From the NCBI GenBank assembly GCA_963715195.1, contig CAVQRT010000012.1:1-11800 (forward strand): a stretch of DNA of 11,800 nt, given 5' to 3'. Both the position numbers and the translations under genes were made by a program. The notes beneath the pieces are model-generated. The model saw only the letters and a list, made by a program, of their open reading frames with translations. It was not told where the DNA came from and did no database searches. Origin of the DNA: Thermodesulfovibrionales bacterium (lineage in GTDB: Bacteria > Nitrospirota > Thermodesulfovibrionia > Thermodesulfovibrionales > SM23-35). Below are positions 1,567 through 10,410 of the stretch, piece by piece. Each line of letters begins with the position of its first letter. Position 1 is the first letter of the stretch.

Positions 1567-4500
1567 CTACTTGACTGTCTCGAAATTAAAGCTTCCTACC
1601 AAGAAATTATTCGTTGCTCTCCATATCTCTACAAGATATTTTTCAGGTTTTTTATCAGTCTTGAAGTTGGTAATGTATAGCTCTCCGCTAAGATCAATCC
1701 GGTAATCTGTAGCTGTATTGCCAAAACTTGATGTTTGCATGATAGTCTTGGAACTGCAGCTGTCGTTTTGGCATTCGTAAATTCTGATCTCAAGATGCTC
1801 GTTATAGACAAATGGCATACTCGGATCAACGCTTTCAGATATTCTCAGGGAGAATTTAACCGGCATGGTGCGTCCTGCTTTGTTATCAGGAGTTGAAGGT
1901 AACAGTTCTAAGACAGCCCAGTTGCGAATGCTGAATGCCCTGACTTGGCTCCATCCCTCATTGCCTGCATTGTCTATCGCTTTAGCCAGTATCACATAGT
2001 AGCCATCCTGAAGCAGTGTGGTTTCAAAGGGATATTCCCATAATCCAGTAGAGGCATTAAATGTTGCTTCAAGGTCCTCATATCCTATGGGGATATCATT
2101 GCCATCGCCAGGTTCACGCACGAAGAAATACATCTTGTCTATGCCGCTTAGATCAGTCGCATCCGCCTTGAAGATAACCCCATCCTGAAGGGCATTATTG
2201 GGTAAAGGAGTGACAATGGTCACTTCGGGTGGTGTTAAATCTATAGCTGGGCCTCCGGGGTCCTGAATGGAACCGGCATTCATATCAAGATCCCCGAACT
2301 GATTGTCTATGAAATTCAGATATATTCTGTTTAGATTTGAGTCAATGATTGCACACGAAGAATATTGACTACCCCTGCATGTGAAATCGAAACATGGCTG
2401 CTCAGAATTACCAGGATTGTATTTCAAGTACTGATTGATAGAACTGGTATCAGCATGTGTATACATGACAACTGTGATCGGTTCTGGATCAATTGGGAAG
2501 GCAGGCAGTCCTGTCAGGGTAATCCTGAAGAATCCAAATGGGTATTGTGCGGTTTGACAGAGCTGGCTCTCGGTGGGCGGCGCTATTGGTTCAACTGTCA
2601 GGCCTGTTCCTTGCGGCGCTGCAAAGGTTACATAGTATGCGCTGTCATACGTATATTGAGACTTCACATGGGGCTGCAATCTGTCAGGGACCGTATCATC
2701 ATCACCGCTATAGTAAGGGTCGTCACCGCCTGGTCCCATTTCTGCAACATCGGGAAGACCGTCAGCATCTGCGTCTGAATTACAAACATCGCCTACGCCG
2801 TTTCCATCTTCATCTAATTGATCCGGATTATAAGTATAGGGACAGTTGTCAAAGCAATCTGCAACACCGTCGTTGTCAGCGTCAAGCCCTTCGTCTATCA
2901 ACCCGTTGGGCGGACAACTATTATCTAGTCCGTCACATATCTCGAGATTTGGTGCTCCAGGGTAAATATTTGGATTAAGAGGGTCACAATCTGCATAATC
3001 AGGTGATCCGTCATTGTCGTCATCGTCATCAACGTCATCTGTGAAACCATCTCCATCTGTATCCGGATATTGAACTGCAACCTGAGGACCAACCATGCAA
3101 TTGTTATCTTCATCCGTCTCGAAAACATTTCCTGTGGCATCGGCACAGGCATGCAGATAATAGGTCCCTGATGAGATTCCGTGTGGGACCCTAACCGAGA
3201 TGGTACCCTCAGAGATTGAGCCGGGACCTAAAGATTCTACTGTCCTCTCGCCTATTGGTATCGCTCTGCCCGATTCTATGTCGTCTCTGGTTATAGTGCT
3301 GGCATGATTGATAAAGAACACCGTGGAGGAAGCAACCTCGGTAGCGAGTCCGGAGGAGGCATTGGAGGTTATATCCGATACAGAAATGCTCTCCCCAGCA
3401 GAAACAGTCGAGGTGCCCAGCGATGTGGTAAAGTCAGCGATAGAAAGGTCTGCTCCGTTGCCCGTCTCAAGATGGTTTTCGTGGTAGATTTCGGAGATTC
3501 TATTTATTTTGTCCGGATAAAGTAATTGGAATCCAGCGTAGATATGATCTATGGTAACTGGATGCCTGGGTTCAAAGAGATCTATTTCAATACCAACAGG
3601 AATCTCGAAGGGGAAATCTCCTAGGGTATCCCAGCGTACATTAAAGTAACTGCCCGGGGGGTCATAGTTTTTTATCACATTCCAAATATCGCTGAAAGGT
3701 AAACGCAGATGATCTGCTGACAAGTCGCTGTCATGATTATCGTGTCCATTATGAACAATAAAACCCCCTCCAAAAGTGGCATGCGCCCAATGACCAACAG
3801 CAAAGATGTCAGTTTCTGAGGTACCCCAAATCCCATCCATTGCACAATTAGCATAGGGAGCAGGTGCCATTGCATCACTGGAGCAGCTCTCACCGTCATA
3901 ACGGAGTATTGAGCAACCTGGCCTGAGAATAAGTAAGGAACCTGATAGAGTCCCTTCACCGTAAACAATAAATAAATCAGTCCCTGAACTGCCCCAAATA
4001 CCAAAATACTGATTGTTTGGATTACCGCCATCCATAGGTATCCAGCTTTGGCCGTCATATCGGAGGATAGTGTTTTGCAAACCGACAACAAAAACTTTTC
4101 CCCATTTATCTCCCCAGATTCCATTTAGATGGTTTGGAGAACCACTGTTCATCGATGACCAGGTCTGGCCGTCGTAGTGGAGGACTGTACCGCCGTTCCC
4201 CACGGCAAATACGTCCGTCCCGGAACTTCCCCATACACCGTTAAGCGTGGTTGTAGTGCCACTGTTCATCGATGACCAGGCCTGACCGTCGTAGTGAAGG
4301 ATTGTGCCATTACTACCAACGGCAAAAACGTCTGCCTTGTAACTTCCCCAAATACCATGTAGTGTGGTTGTAATACCACTGTCCATGGGAGACCAACTCT
4401 GACCGTCGAAGCGAAGGATTGTGCCATTACTGCCAACGGCGAAAACATTTGCCCTTGAACTCCCCCAAATACTTTGCAGATCATTAGAGGTGTTACTTTG

Positions 4501-6327
4501 CATTGGAGTCCATCCCTGACTGTAGTGATGAAGGATTGTGCCATTATCCCCAACAGCATACACGTCTCTTCCAGAACTTCCCCACACACCATTCAAAGAA
4601 TTTAATGTTCCGCTTACCATTGTAGACCAGCCTGTATCATCATAAATATCCCATAACACAGCAGCAGAAATGCCCTCAACAAATCTTGGGTCTTCGTCAG
4701 GCTGCGGACATCCATCACAATTTCCATCATCATCTGATCCCAACCAACAAGGATTTGTGTCATCAAAACTATAAAAAGTATAAGGATATTCATAGCTTTC
4801 AGCAGTATATCCTAGAGAAGCAGATACTACAGCAGCGAAAAAATCCGCCCAACCTTCTGTGAAATGCGTGGTATTTTCGCATGTTCCTCGAGGACCATCT
4901 GGGCACCCATCTTCAGGTCTCCAAGTACTATGACCATATATAGGGTCATGATCACAAATGCCGTTCCAATAATAGTCTTTCATATTTAAATCTAAAAGCA
5001 TGTGTTGCACTTTGTGTCCGTATTCATGATACAGTGTCTCACGATTCCATCCTTTGTTAGGATGGATATGGATACCAAATGGGCCTGCATAACTGTGCTG
5101 ATCTTCTTTAGCATTCGAAGAAGGCCAGATTACGTCAACTGGATGAAGGTTACTTTCGTAATCCTTAATAAACGTAAAAGCTTCGTACAGTCTGGTTTGT
5201 AAGTGCCAAGCAGCATCCTCAGTGGAAACGTCTATGTCGCCGCAAACATCAAACGGACAAGTATCGAGTTCAACACCGCACGGATCACAACAGGACAATG
5301 AGTTATCCGGTTTAATATCTCCATTGACATCTCCGAAATTGATTGTCCGTTGGCACAATAATCCGCTGCAGTTAGTGCCATTCTCTCTGGATTGTTCATG
5401 TCGAGGAGTTCTGAGACAGTAAGTCAAACCACCGAATTCGAGGAATTGTGTCTTTATCGCACCTGCGTCAGAAACAGCCTCCACCTGTACATAGGGATCG
5501 GGATAGTCAAGATCATACAATCCGGCCCAGCATTCCATATGATCTTCATACCAATCGCCTGAGGCAACCAATGGAATCGGATCACAATTATGACCTATGG
5601 GGCGGGTAATCCCAATACATTCTGAATGTGGAGGGTACGTATCTCCATTGCACCAACAACCAGTCCAATCGCAACGAATATCTAAAGGTTGACAACAACC
5701 CTCGCTAGTATTTTGATCGAGGCCATTACAGAGCCCGGTGTTATAAACCCCTATGCAACATTGGTTATTTCCATACGGGGTCTTTTCAAGACCCTCACAG
5801 TCCTCAAATGAATAAAGACCGTCACAACATTGTCCCATTCCTTCAACGTACTGATCCCCTAAATCACAAGCATGTTCCTGATAGCCTAAACAACACTTAT
5901 CCCCCATCACATGACAACATTGATCAACCAAACCAGGGAAGGCCTCAGTAATAGCGCTGCATTGATCATTGACATAACATGGGGCACAAAGAACATCCAA
6001 ATCACTGCCCGAACATCCATCAATTTCAAATGTCCCGTCATCTTTAGTAATGTCTGAACACATTTCAGTGCGGCACAATTCTATCGGCGTGCCAGGAACC
6101 ATACAAGTGGCTTTCTCTCCGAAGTCATAGTCATACACGGTCACCTTAGCACCCTTGACCGGCTCATCCTGGCCATCATGTGTGTACACTACGCGACCTG
6201 TTGCAGTAATGTTAGCATCCGCAGCGATAGAAACTGATGGCAACGTGAGAATGCAAAACAGCATTAATAGGCTCAACATAAATGCATAGTATCTTTGAGT
6301 TAATCGAAGTTGTTTTTCGTGAATCAT
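1567..6327 (-). CDS. Large secreted multidomain putative Zn-metallopeptidase/adhesin (1,586 aa)
   Basis: SD GAGGGGG. Sec-type signal peptide (...LPSVSIAA). Cys-rich N-terminal region. HEYGH (5014-5028) plus downstream EGWADF. Seven ~39-aa GxWGSS..DVFAVG repeats. CARDB-like domain (ADLSI...YYLHACAD..VFETDEDNN). DxDxDG / DNCP..NPDQ.D.D Ca-binding repeats. DCDP.NP.IYPGA..ICDGLDNSC motif. PFGFF...DNQFGDLD..IQDPGGP (choice-of-anchor-U-like). Ig-like AxDxAGN domain. C-terminal KAGRTMPVKF (PxKF-like). Confidence 0.93.
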   Translation of the reverse strand: MIHEKQLRLTQRYYAFMLSLLMLFCILTLPSVSIAADANITATGRVVYTHDGQDEPVKGAKVTVYDYDFGEKATCMVPGTPIELCRTEMCSDITKDDGTFEIDGCSGSDLDVLCAPCYVNDQCSAITEAFPGLVDQCCHVMGDKCCLGYQEHACDLGDQYVEGMGQCCDGLYSFEDCEGLEKTPYGNNQCCIGVYNTGLCNGLDQNTSEGCCQPLDIRCDWTGCWCNGDTYPPHSECIGITRPIGHNCDPIPLVASGDWYEDHMECWAGLYDLDYPDPYVQVEAVSDAGAIKTQFLEFGGLTYCLRTPRHEQSRENGTNCSGLLCQRTINFGDVNGDIKPDNSLSCCDPCGVELDTCPFDVCGDIDVSTEDAAWHLQTRLYEAFTFIKDYESNLHPVDVIWPSSNAKEDQHSYAGPFGIHIHPNKGWNRETLYHEYGHKVQHMLLDLNMKDYYWNGICDHDPIYGHSTWRPEDGCPDGPRGTCENTTHFTEGWADFFAAVVSASLGYTAESYEYPYTFYSFDDTNPCWLGSDDDGNCDGCPQPDEDPRFVEGISAAVLWDIYDDTGWSTMVSGTLNSLNGVWGSSGRDVYAVGDNGTILHHYSQGWTPMQSNTSNDLQSIWGSSRANVFAVGSNGTILRFDGQSWSPMDSGITTTLHGIWGSYKADVFAVGSNGTILHYDGQAWSSMNSGTTTTLNGVWGSSGTDVFAVGNGGTVLHYDGQTWSSMNSGSPNHLNGIWGDKWGKVFVVGLQNTILRYDGQSWIPMDGGNPNNQYFGIWGSSGTDLFIVYGEGTLSGSLLILRPGCSILRYDGESCSSDAMAPAPYANCAMDGIWGTSETDIFAVGHWAHATFGGGFIVHNGHDNHDSDLSADHLRLPFSDIWNVIKNYDPPGSYFNVRWDTLGDFPFEIPVGIEIDLFEPRHPVTIDHIYAGFQLLYPDKINRISEIYHENHLETGNGADLSIADFTTSLGTSTVSAGESISVSDITSNASSGLATEVASSTVFFINHASTITRDDIESGRAIPIGERTVESLGPGSISEGTISVRVPHGISSGTYYLHACADATGNVFETDEDNNCMVGPQVAVQYPDTDGDGFTDDVDDDDDNDGSPDYADCDPLNPNIYPGAPNLEICDGLDNSCPPNGLIDEGLDADNDGVADCFDNCPYTYNPDQLDEDGNGVGDVCNSDADADGLPDVAEMGPGGDDPYYSGDDDTVPDRLQPHVKSQYTYDSAYYVTFAAPQGTGLTVEPIAPPTESQLCQTAQYPFGFFRITLTGLPAFPIDPEPITVVMYTHADTSSINQYLKYNPGNSEQPCFDFTCRGSQYSSCAIIDSNLNRIYLNFIDNQFGDLDMNAGSIQDPGGPAIDLTPPEVTIVTPLPNNALQDGVIFKADATDLSGIDKMYFFVREPGDGNDIPIGYEDLEATFNASTGLWEYPFETTLLQDGYYVILAKAIDNAGNEGWSQVRAFSIRNWAVLELLPSTPDNKAGRTMPVKFSLRISESVDPSMPFVYNEHLEIRIYECQNDSCSSKTIMQTSSFGNTATDYRIDLSGELYITNFKTDKKPEKYLVEIWRATNNFLVGSFNFETVK
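3745..4629 (-). repeat. Intragenic tandem repeat: seven ~39-aa (117-bp) units, predicted beta-propeller blades
   Basis: Units W-x-x-M-x-S-G...L-x-G-[VI]-W-G-S-S...V-F-A-V-G...G-T-I-L-x-Y-D-G. DNA-level identity, e.g. CCACTGTTCATCGATGACCAGG at 4142 and 4259 (117 bp apart). Confidence 0.9.
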
Positions 6328-7222: not shown

Positions 7223-7951
7223 CTAAAGTCCTCCCACTGAAGAATCAGATTCCAAGTTCTGAAGTAACTGAATAGTCTCTTCCAATCTTTTAATGTTATC
7301 CTCTGAAATACTTTCAAATGCTATCCCAATATCGTAGGTTTCTGGTTTTTCTCCTGCTATAACATTGCAGGATGCTACCCTTCCTGTAATATAGATATGT
7401 TCATCTCCGAGAAGAAACAGTTCCATCTGAATACTTTTTCCCACTTCTAATGCACGTTGGCTTTCAATAAGCATACCGCCTAAACTTAAATTTTTTGTCC
7501 TATATTTCTCATGGAAAAATACTGTAGCTTCCTTTTCCTGAATGCTGCTGAATCTGACATATAATCTTGTTCCGGTCTTTTTGTAGGCCTCAACTTTTTC
7601 CTCTTCCTCTTCACAATTAGTTTCAATAAAAGCAGATATCTCTTTTATCTTTTCATCTGTGAGATCCATAAATTGCATGCCTGCAGTATATATCGGAATA
7701 ACATTTCCAAGATTGTCTTTCTCAGTTTTCGTTAGAAAAGACCACATTATTTTGCCTTTTACCGTAAAAGACGTGTTTTGACCATTTATTGTCAATAGAG
7801 ATTGACTACCTACAGACAATTGTTTGTCAGTTTTTAATGCTAACCCACCAAGGCTGATGTTGAGTATCCTCACATGTTTGGCCAGCACCATTTTGCCAGT
7901 AATTTTGAGAGCATCAACTTTATACCGCTTATGTCGTCTTTCAGCATGCAT
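7223..7951 (-). CDS. Tandem double PilZ-domain protein (putative c-di-GMP receptor)
   Basis: Domain 1: RRHKR + NISLGG...G.I.W...AGMQF. Domain 2: RLYVR + NLSLGG...GRV...IGIAF. Both have the RxxxR and [D/N]xSxxG PilZ motifs. Confidence 0.92.
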   Translation of the reverse strand: MHAERRHKRYKVDALKITGKMVLAKHVRILNISLGGLALKTDKQLSVGSQSLLTINGQNTSFTVKGKIMWSFLTKTEKDNLGNVIPIYTAGMQFMDLTDEKIKEISAFIETNCEEEEEKVEAYKKTGTRLYVRFSSIQEKEATVFFHEKYRTKNLSLGGMLIESQRALEVGKSIQMELFLLGDEHIYITGRVASCNVIAGEKPETYDIGIAFESISEDNIKRLEETIQLLQNLESDSSVGGL

Positions 7952-8168: not shown

Positions 8169-9672
8169 CTATTTCCTCTTGTCATGTGGCACAACTACCG
8201 TAGCACTGAGTTTATGTGGTCCTGAACAATCTTCAACTGTGACATTGATGATGTAACTTCTCCCTTGAGAGTTACCTGCTCTTTTGCTCCGAAGATTCAC
8301 GCTTAGCGCATCCGTGATCTGATAGTCTGGCTCAAGAATATTTTCTTCATATATATCCCGGCCTTTCTTATCCATCTCGATTACATTCACAGAGTCTATC
8401 TGCATTATCGCAAACGGGCTTGATGAAACGATATTCGAAACATCGATTGTAACGGGAATCATGCGATTATCAGGCGGCCACAGTATTGCTTTCGAGGGCA
8501 ATATGCTCCCGGTTATGCCTTTACTATTACATTCATCGCAAACGTCTCCAATACCATCATTATCCATATCTGCCTGATCCTTGTTTGGGTATTCTGGACA
8601 GTTATCTTCATTGCCACACACTCCATCTTTATCAAGATCGTTGGATGGATCATCTGGGCAGGTATCGCAGACGTTACCGATATTGTCCTCATCGGTGTCC
8701 TCCTGTGACGGATTAAAAACATCGACGCAATTGTCCTCTGAGTCTGCGATGTCGTCACCGTCAGCGTCTTCGAGAGCTGATTTAAATATCTGGATGCGAC
8801 TATTGCCCGTGTCCGAGACGAGTATTTCCCCCAAAGGTCCCGTGTTAACGCGGACAGGATAGTCGAATGCGCCTTCCTCGGTGCCTGGTTTTCCCCATTC
8901 TGTGAGGAGGTCACCTTCAGGAGTGAATTTCATGATGGTGCTTGTCTGTGGAAAAATGGCGTAGACATTATCTGAAGAGTCTGTTGCGAGGCTGTATACC
9001 GTCCCCGTGGGCCATGCCGCGAGGGGAATTCCGTCTCCGTCGAATTTCTGGATGCGAAGATTCAATGTGTCGGCCACATAGACGTTTCCTTTGCCATCAA
9101 CCGCCACGTCAAAGGGTGATCTGAACTGCCCCCGATCCGAACCTGTACCGCCCCATTCCGTGACGGGGATCCCCTCTGAAGTTAATTTTTGAACGGTGTT
9201 ATCCACAGAATTGGTGACATACACATATGTGATAACGCTTCCGTCGGAATCGATATCCGAGTGTGTCGCGATTCCAATTGGGATGAACGGAGAACTGCTG
9301 TTGCCAAACTGCAAGAGGAGATTCCCATCCTGATCGAACTTTGTTACCCCTGCCGCGTCTGCCACATACACATTATTTGAAGAGTCAGTCGCGATATCCC
9401 ATGCAGTGGGGCACGCTGATGAGTCCTCTGCCCCGCAGCTCGTCCATTCGTCGAGAAACGAACCAGTTTTGTTGAATTTTCTTATTTGCATAGAGTAGCC
9501 GTCAACCACGTATATGTTTCCGAGTGTATCCTGTGCAACTCCCCAAGGAAAGGGGGTTGACCACTGCCTGTCAAAAACAGGCGGATCTTCAATGGCATAA
9601 GCTACGCTTGCCGACTGTTAAAACCATGCATACAAACACTGCGTTATATACGATGCTCTTTGCCTGGTACAT
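8169..9672 (-). pseudogene. Secreted NHL-repeat (beta-propeller) + TSP3-like Ca-binding protein, ~500 aa when repaired; 1-bp frameshift in the signal peptide (annotated ORF 8169-9509 is the N-truncated part)
   Basis: SD AAAGGGAGG and ATG at 9672 give MYQAKSIVYNAVFVCMVLTV. Removing one base near 9612 continues ASVAYA/IEDPPVFDRQWSTPFPWGVAQDTLGNIYVVDG into the 446-aa ORF. NHL motifs GQFRSPFDVAVDGKGNVYVADTLNLRIQKF and GAFDYPVRV..GEILVSDTGNSRIQIF. DNC..NP.Q.D.D.D.IGDVC repeats. C-terminal LWPP...LRSKR.G..GRSY...VPHD domain. Product call is confident; a real frameshift cannot be told from a sequencing error here. Confidence 0.8.
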
Positions 9673-9762
9673 CTTTTCCTCCCTTTAGGTAGATATGTCT
9701 CGTTGACATACCTTCGTGACAAAATGACCGGACTAATACTCAGTTCCGATCCCCCTTTAAAT

Positions 9763-9795
9763 AAAAAAAGCCTACCCCGAAAGGTAGACTTTTTT
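9763..9795 (-). terminator. Intrinsic terminator forming the riboswitch expression platform
   Basis: Minus strand AAGTCTACCT-TTCG-GGGTAGGCTT followed by a U-run. Starts a few nt after the aptamer and ends about 90 nt before the ATG at 9672. Confidence 0.88.
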
Positions 9796-9798
9796 ACC

Positions 9799-9888
9799 GC
9801 CACTTCGATAACCCCTCTTTCCCTTTTTCAACCCCAGGAAAGGTGGCTTTGTGTCGCTTGATCGCTCAAGCTTTACCTTTTCGGTGGC
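9799..9888 (-). ncRNA. GEMM-I / c-di-GMP-I-type riboswitch aptamer (variant pocket G20/A47/U92)
   Basis: Minus strand GCCAC-CGAAAAG-GTAAA-GCTTGA-GCGA-TCAAGC-GACAC-AAAGCCACC-TTTCCT...AGGGAAAG-AGGGGTTATCGAA-GTGGC. Has the GYAAA / GACRCAAAGCC / GGGUUAYCGAA landmarks, a GNRA-capped P2, a covarying GU/AC pair (Vc2 has GC/GC) and a closing GCCAC/GTGGC P1. Sits in a 5' leader followed by a terminator. Confidence 0.87.
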
Positions 9889-10410
9889 ATTAGCTAGTAT
9901 GTCATGTATCTTAAATCATCTTAAAAACCGCTCCAGCATAAAATAAGTTCTTTGGTCCTTAATGATATTAATACCACACCGTTATCAAGTAATCGGTGTT
10001 TTGAATCACATCGAGTAAAAGAATTGTCGTGATAACTATTTGCTAATTCCTGTATAAATAACGGGACCTGATTGAATATAAGTTCCAGGAAGTTTTTTTA
10101 CCTGTGTGGTTCTTAATAATAGCGTTGACTGCTCATGGCGGCTGTCTATGTTTTCTTGGGAAATAGGTAAACCTCGAAAATGTCAGATTTGCGTATTCCT
10201 ATGTGCAGGTGAGAAAAAAGGTATGCACAGTATGGGACGAATGTAACAAAACAATGATTGAGAACCTAAGAGGCAAAATAACTTCCTGTAATGTTGTATA
10301 AATAGAACCTAGTTAATCAACAACAGTCCTTTTGAAAATCAATATGCTCACATTTGTTGTGATATGCTAAGCTGGTCTAATAACCGCGGCAGCATTTTTA
10401 AAGGGGCGCA

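Follow-up and report, generated by a model that had tools for sequence, protein, structure and literature searches.

What does a GEMM-I riboswitch sense when uridine occupies a ligand-pairing position that both Vc2 and the Rfam consensus fill with cytidine? The question is raised by a leader on the minus strand of the window analysed here, an 11,800-nt stretch that makes up the entire contig C12 of genome G000, a Thermodesulfovibrionales bacterium. Pocket positions 20, 47 and 92 of this leader read G, A and U, and position 92 is the one that pairs with the beta base of the ligand. A first-pass annotation, made from the letters alone, had regarded the pocket as non-canonical and had proposed either a reader of the hybrid 3′,3′-cGAMP or a detuned c-di-GMP sensor.

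A cmscan search of the whole window returned a single match, to RF01051 (c-di-GMP-I), at 9887–9804 (−); it covers the full model (1–87 of 87) and scores 54.6 bits against a gathering threshold of 35 (E = 1.2e-08), bearing out the Vc2-like fold first assigned by eye. With P1 included, the aptamer spans 9799..9888 (−). Posterior probability is in the top class across its 3′ strand, where the alignment puts U9808 in the C92 column and C9807 at position 93. The proposed register, with G20 at 9877 and U92 at 9808, is thereby upheld, and the alternative in which C9807 would be position 92 is ruled out. The remaining key positions are A47 at 9850, the stacking adenine of J2/3 (GAC AC AAA), C44 at 9853 and G83 at 9817, and the consensus G14–C93 pair is kept. 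The role of G20 follows PMC6140456, and G9877 also takes part in the predicted antiterminator pairing described below; G20 and C92 are termed less conserved than A47 in the available portion of PMC9049102.

In the minimum free energy (MFE) fold of the leader (z = −2.4; 5 of 200 shuffled sequences were equally stable), P1 pairs 9888–9882 with 9807–9799, leaving A9805 and A9804 bulged, and the terminator is detached. P2 (9852..9876, −) consists of G21–C46, a compensated U22–A45 pair and a 6-bp stem (9871–9866/9861–9856) capped by a GCGA loop of the GNRA type (9865–9862). P3 (9810..9848, −) contains C54–G86, C55–G85, U56–A84 and an A82/G83 bulge; its distal part aligns with low probability and has gaps in the tetraloop-receptor columns, and no clear canonical receptor was seen there. 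The aptamer thus has in common with Vc2 the P1/P2/P3 three-way junction, the GNRA loop, C44/G83, G20, A47 and G14–C93, and departs from it in U92 for C92, U22–A45 for C22–G45, U56–A84 in P3 and the want of a clear receptor. A terminator at 9789–9763 and a gene start at 9672 lie downstream, as befits a leader with an expression platform. Judged by its sequence, the element is a member of the structural family c-di-GMP-I; because C92 is absent from the pocket, it is filed at family level and not as a proven c-di-GMP-selective member. The window gave no reported match to the Rfam variants c-di-GMP-I-UAU (RF03168) and c-di-GMP-I-GGC (RF03167), and its pocket is G-A-U; we take the names of these variants to be the letters at positions 20/47/92. 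For many G-A-U aptamers elsewhere (L121, L136, L147, L158 and others) the UAU and GGC models give the higher score, which makes the label of a variant no guide to its pocket letters.

U92 is neither a sequencing error nor private to this contig. Within the assembly, the sister contig C11 aligns at 99.4% identity over 4.9 kb and carries an identical aptamer, U92 included. Position 9808 is covered by contigs of 4 public runs from 4 studies with no other letter listed; run X1 is possibly the source sample, and one X7 contig, whose end lies 10 nt from 9808, gives no reading at that position. In a diverged strain, represented by X7 record 12 and almost unchanged in X8 record 14, 17 positions differ within 9653–10050 and none within 9742–9889, an interval picked post hoc for which the chance is about 4e-4.

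The regulated gene (8169..9672, −) encodes, by Pfam, a secreted protein with an NHL beta-propeller and thrombospondin type 3 (TSP3) repeats. The C11 copy is in frame over 500 aa and has, as judged by eye, a signal peptide, whereas in the window one additional base at 9613 causes a frameshift within that peptide. Since C11 is in frame and the base is also absent from the X1, X2 and X7 contigs, the frameshift most likely stems from the assembly. Searching 57 family genomes with the protein located the gene in G000 and in two genomes of another genus (G022 and G649; 48–52% identity). Both orthologous leaders have G20/A47/U92 with the same terminator and arrangement, so that U92 is present in 3 of 3 leaders of this locus, without alternation. 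The earlier view that fold and terminator are intact, which spoke against decay, agrees with the MFE fold and with the retention of both elements in these leaders.

The NHL/TSP3 gene is followed by a tandem PilZ-domain gene (7223..7951, −; two stretches matching Pfam PF07238). The window also encodes a secreted-looking protein of 1586 aa with CARDB, TSP3 and Ig domains (1567–6327, −); C11 aligns on either side of this interval and not across it, which suggests a variable cassette. An IS3-type transposase pair lies at 192–1219 (−) and has close copies on C11, C16 and C23. The third GEMM-I match of the genome (L003; G000:C22:1934–2010, +) reads G20/C21-C22/A47/C92; its terminator overlaps position 92 (ON-type), and the downstream frame ends after 67 codons.

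The intrinsic terminator (9763..9789, −), found in MFE folds and conserved in G022 and G649, has an 8-bp core (9789–9782/9777–9770), a UUCG loop and a U tract (9769–9763), and does not overlap P1; a simple terminator scanner reported this hairpin on the plus strand only. When transcripts ending at 9775 or 9770 were folded, a predicted antiterminator strand (9777..9786, −) paired with the 5′ strand of the aptamer (9884–9874) in a computed 10 bp with one bulge, and in the full leader the combination of aptamer and terminator was best (−45.8 versus −42.7 kcal/mol). Covariation within subtype A, the P3-defined group described below, supports the same pairing, with matched substitutions at positions 19 and 22. 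The 5′ strand is complementary to downstream sequence in 56 of 82 subtype A aptamers (p ≤ 0.05, 100 shuffles), and the antiterminator could be anchored in 46 of 81 cases. Among these 46, position 22 faces the antiterminator as C-G in 23, U-A in 9, C-A in 9 and otherwise in 5; position 19 does so as A-U in 23, G-U in 9, U-A in 4, G-C in 3 and otherwise in 7; and G20 stands opposite C in 43. The folding model makes this a predicted OFF switch under kinetic control, comparable to Cd1, the c-di-GMP OFF switch of C. difficile, in which an antiterminator competes with an aptamer and a terminator that are able to form side by side (PMC9262584, in the part available). The Cd1 antiterminator takes the 3′ aptamer strand, whereas that of the window is predicted to take the 5′ strand, G20 included. 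The predicted apo fold further contains an A9881–U9808 pair (p = 0.71), which is a possible reason for U92 unrelated to the ligand.

Where the first-pass annotation saw an unusual pocket, U92 proved to be a recurring natural variant of the GEMM-I pocket. The G20/A47/U92 pattern occurs at at least 120 loci in GTDB, and the matches listed come from Geobacterales, Desulfuromonadales, Nitrospirota, Bacillota, Myxococcota, Alphaproteobacteria, Actinomycetota and Planctomycetota; 75 of 80 of these loci put through an Rfam scan fell in clan CL00126 above gathering. The comparison of homologues and copies that had been suggested thus found U92 again in C11, in orthologous leaders and in other phyla. 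Among metagenome aptamers collected with a pattern open at position 92, U was present in 5 of 122 (125 matches in 121 loci, less 2 duplicates and 1 fold failure). In relatives, RF01051 gave 87 matches in 24 of 41 genomes, of which 84 were unique; removal of 3 that were unreadable at the 3′ end left 81, and 10 of these have U92, after three position-20 letters and one false U had been corrected by eye. A loose phylum-wide pattern, mostly noise, was excluded from the counts. Among the 52 natural GEMM-I aptamers screened by Wang et al. 2016 (PMC5041473) is Oi-125 of O. iheyensis, which by our reading of Table S2 also has G20/A47/U92, so that work on natural U92 aptamers has a precedent; Oi-125 is not of subtype A, and according to the legend the screen used c-di-GMP only. 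Our literature search, the scope of which lay short of key primary papers, returned nothing on the ligand of natural G20/U92 aptamers and no paper on subtype A; tested ones may appear in the supplementary data of Kellenberger 2015 and Weinberg 2017. A distinct GEMM-I variant with A20 and G48 (L013, L019, L027, L067, L071, L099) was seen in five genomes of the window's order.

Subtype A, a label from this analysis, comprises aptamers in which C54 C55 U56 face A84 G85 G86 in P3 (U56–A84), the form found in the window. It accounts for 8 of the 10 U92 aptamers of the relatives; the 81 divide into 8 U and 14 C in subtype A and 2 U and 57 C in the remaining GEMM-I. With positions 20 and 92 left open, a subtype A pattern matched 33 rows spread over 19 of the 161 genomes of the window's order, 18 with U and 15 with C (including two duplicate pairs, the U rows coming from 13 genomes), with A20 in 5 of the 33, all C92. 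Applied to Desulfuromonadia, the class around a Geobacterales genome, the same pattern again matched 33 rows, from 27 of 121 genomes and likewise 18 U and 15 C; 4 of the U rows belong to two genomes that had first come to notice for their U92. U92 is accordingly present in 36 of 66 subtype A rows versus 5 of 122 metagenome aptamers, an approximately 13-fold enrichment that is descriptive, kin being not independent. These counts, together with the folding, point to a U56–A84 subtype of predicted transcriptional OFF switches, new here, that occurs both in the window's order and in Desulfuromonadia. OFF logic by itself is not enough to account for the enrichment, since another OFF type among the relatives mostly keeps C92. 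That U92 goes with OFF platforms was not established: none of 109 listed GTDB U92 aptamers has a terminator overlapping position 92, in a scan that found no terminator for 55 of the 109 and only 4 overlapping cases among the relatives.

C92 and U92 alternate upstream of orthologous genes in four gene groups (69–83% identity). These are Rec-HD-domain orthologues (L132 and L174 with U92 versus L401 with C92; 75–78%), HD-domain orthologues (L403 with U92 versus L393 with C92; 76%) and two clades of a 110-aa protein (L176, L187 and L400 with U92 versus L391 and L396 with C92, 69–83%; L392 with U92 versus L406 with C92, 76%). Near-identical natural C92/U92 pairs before orthologous genes occur among them, for example L401/L132 and L391/L176. 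The 110-aa protein follows a subtype A switch at each of its seven loci, and the 2 of 7 that were scanned had no Pfam match. On an aptamer tree built with column 92 masked, position 92 changed 16 times among 61 subtype A aptamers, against 20.5 ± 2.1 changes for shuffled labels (19 of 500 shuffles were as low), a weak phylogenetic grouping on a poorly resolved tree. Genes downstream of both states encode surface proteins or cyclic-dinucleotide turnover or receptor functions, and do not name the ligand.

G000 contains about 18 GGDEF domains (20 rows), 11 HD_5 matches and one DAC-domain gene; no SMODS-type CD-NTase was found in it. The suggested survey for Hypr and CD-NTase genes did yield a Hypr-type GGDEF, 1 of 14 GGDEF sequences examined, at C7:147648–149186. 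This GAF and GGDEF protein has Ser at the 348-equivalent (the Hypr position), a GGDEF motif and Ser at the cross-dimer position, the signature being taken from the available part of PMC6456294, and its best PDB match is GacA (6D9M, E = 4e-51), far ahead of canonical cyclases. On this signature, the window's bacterium appears able to make cGAMP. The Hypr DNA pattern, an exact match that may miss true enzymes, was present in 34 of 41 relatives; all 24 genomes with RF01051 were Hypr-positive and all 7 Hypr-negative genomes were without it, kin again being not independent. It was also present in G000 and in 38 of 39 further subtype A genomes, those with C92 members among them. Among 50 U92-holding GTDB genomes, taken from the matches listed, the motif was not found in 29, Bacillota isolates included; by class, it was present in 12 of 13 subtype A holders versus 9 of 37 other U92 holders.

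The reading we favour, with confidence about evenly divided, is that of a working transcriptional OFF switch of the GEMM-I family that would still respond chiefly to c-di-GMP, detuned by a G–U wobble at U92. G20 would read G-alpha as usual and A47 would stack, while U92 would hold G-beta through a wobble that replaces the G–C pair, and the switch would then trip at a higher c-di-GMP level. With ligand absent, the aptamer 5′ strand (9884–9874) would pair with the 5′ arm of the terminator and the NHL/TSP3 gene would be read through; with ligand bound, P1 would be locked, the terminator freed and transcription stopped. Some cGAMP cross-binding would be allowed, which we take as secondary. The sequence, family membership, conservation and covariation were observed directly, the OFF logic comes from folding, and ligand and affinity go by analogy to engineered Vc2 C92U. 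For this construct Smith in 2010 and Shanahan in 2011 reportedly found a structure with a G–U wobble and Kd values for c-di-GMP and cGAMP in a similar nanomolar range. It has the same pocket letters as the window (Smith 2009/2010; Shanahan 2011), whereas the window aptamer is natural and conserved, on a different scaffold and with its own terminator. In vivo, Vc2 C92U gave a partial response to raised c-di-GMP, according to the available part of bioRxiv 10.1101/617340.

Alternation of C92 and U92 before orthologous genes favours a ligand that both can read, and we infer that only G pairs with both. This alternation, the recurrence of U92 in at least 120 GTDB matches and its presence in genomes where the Hypr motif was not found (29 of 50) make a c-di-GMP sensor that is detuned or relaxed more likely than one dedicated to cGAMP in the opposite register, though both readings of the original proposal keep some probability. 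The GGDEF and HD_5 repertoire of G000 and the downstream PilZ gene also count for c-di-GMP. Counted against this reading are the concentration of U92 in subtype A and the confinement of that subtype almost entirely to Hypr-positive genomes, the GacA-like enzyme of G000, the retention of U92 in all three orthologous leaders, and the binding of 3′,3′-cGAMP by Vc2 C92U, as stated in a review citing Shanahan 2011 (PMC12032345, in the part available). The alternation could also represent repeated rewiring between signals.

A bispecific switch is possible, if somewhat unlikely. U92 would read G by wobble and A by Watson–Crick pairing, and c-di-GMP and 3′,3′-cGAMP would both shut the gene off in vivo; U92 would be a one-step gain of cGAMP input, with the A of cGAMP on U92, that leaves untouched a G20 also serving as antiterminator base, as its position opposite C in nearly all anchored antiterminators would suggest. 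Engineered C92U, which binds cGAMP (PMC12032345) and keeps some c-di-GMP response (bioRxiv 10.1101/617340), is a precedent as far as the available parts of these sources go, and natural bispecific GEMM-I switches of the A20 type exist (PMC6140456). The Hypr GGDEF of G000 and the enrichment of U92 in a subtype found in Hypr-positive genomes point the same way, but nearly all genomes of the window's order are Hypr-positive, which leaves the co-occurrence uninformative, and subtype A aptamers with C92 share such genomes. Moreover, U92 is present in 2 of 59 other GEMM-I types of the same genomes (hand-corrected), and it arises also where the Hypr motif was not found.

It is improbable that the switch prefers cGAMP in the opposite register, with G-alpha on G20 and A-beta on U92, as a cGAMP-OFF element beside the known cGAMP-ON switches and a natural counterpart of A20/C92 GEMM-Ib. 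The subtype A scaffold does occur with A20/C92, the known cGAMP pocket, in 5 of 33 rows, A20/U92 was never seen (0 of 16 A20 aptamers among relatives, hand-corrected), and both the Hypr enzyme and the constancy of U92 at this locus would fit. Against this, C/U alternation before orthologous genes would require repeated regulon switching, U92 occurs in Hypr-negative genomes, and U, which pairs with G by wobble, is unable to exclude G. The GEMM-Ib cGAMP riboswitches of Geobacter (Gs1761, Gm0970, pilM) share the fold, and their hosts encode GacA-type Hypr GGDEFs, as G000 does by the signature of its putative enzyme at C7:147648–149186. They are, however, defined by A20 with C92 kept (PMC6140456), whereas the window has G9877 at position 20 and U92, and they act as ON switches, whereas the window platform is predicted to be OFF. 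Subtype A aptamers with A20/C92 on an OFF-type platform, at L009, L065, L069, L076 (G038) and L420 (G508), are candidate cGAMP-OFF switches; in the G038 copies the antiterminator still pairs with the A20 region.

A c-di-AMP sensor is highly improbable: G000 has its one DAC-domain gene and the G20A/C92U double mutant binds c-di-AMP (PMC9049102 and PMC7288161, in the parts available), but that mutant requires A20, position 20 here is G, and A20/U92 occurred in 0 of 81 readable relatives' aptamers and 0 of 66 subtype A rows. Just as slight is the chance of a sequencing error or of a decaying element upstream of a pseudogene, a reading that the frameshifted gene copy, the near-duplicate contigs and 6.6% contamination of the assembly would allow and that is largely refuted by the lack of the extra base in C11 and three runs, by U92 in C11, four runs and two orthologues, and by the unchanged aptamer region of the diverged strain.

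The leader in the window is therefore a real and conserved member of GEMM-I; its U92 pocket is a recurring one, and the subtype to which it belongs has U92 unusually often. More tentatively, and with rather less than even confidence, subtype A may be an undescribed GEMM-I OFF family of Hypr-encoding Nitrospirota and Desulfuromonadia, its pocket toggling among G20/C92, G20/U92 and A20/C92, whose U92 members would read 3′,3′-cGAMP in the opposite register, alone or with c-di-GMP; they would form a cGAMP-OFF regulon arm of HD-domain, GGDEF, PilZ and surface-protein genes now annotated as plain c-di-GMP. If U92 merely lowers affinity, it would be natural tuning of a known switch, with little import outside annotation. 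Should U92 admit cGAMP, about 4% of G20-type GEMM-I and about half of subtype A would be misread as c-di-GMP-only, and cGAMP signalling would reach Nitrospirota, with an OFF arm.
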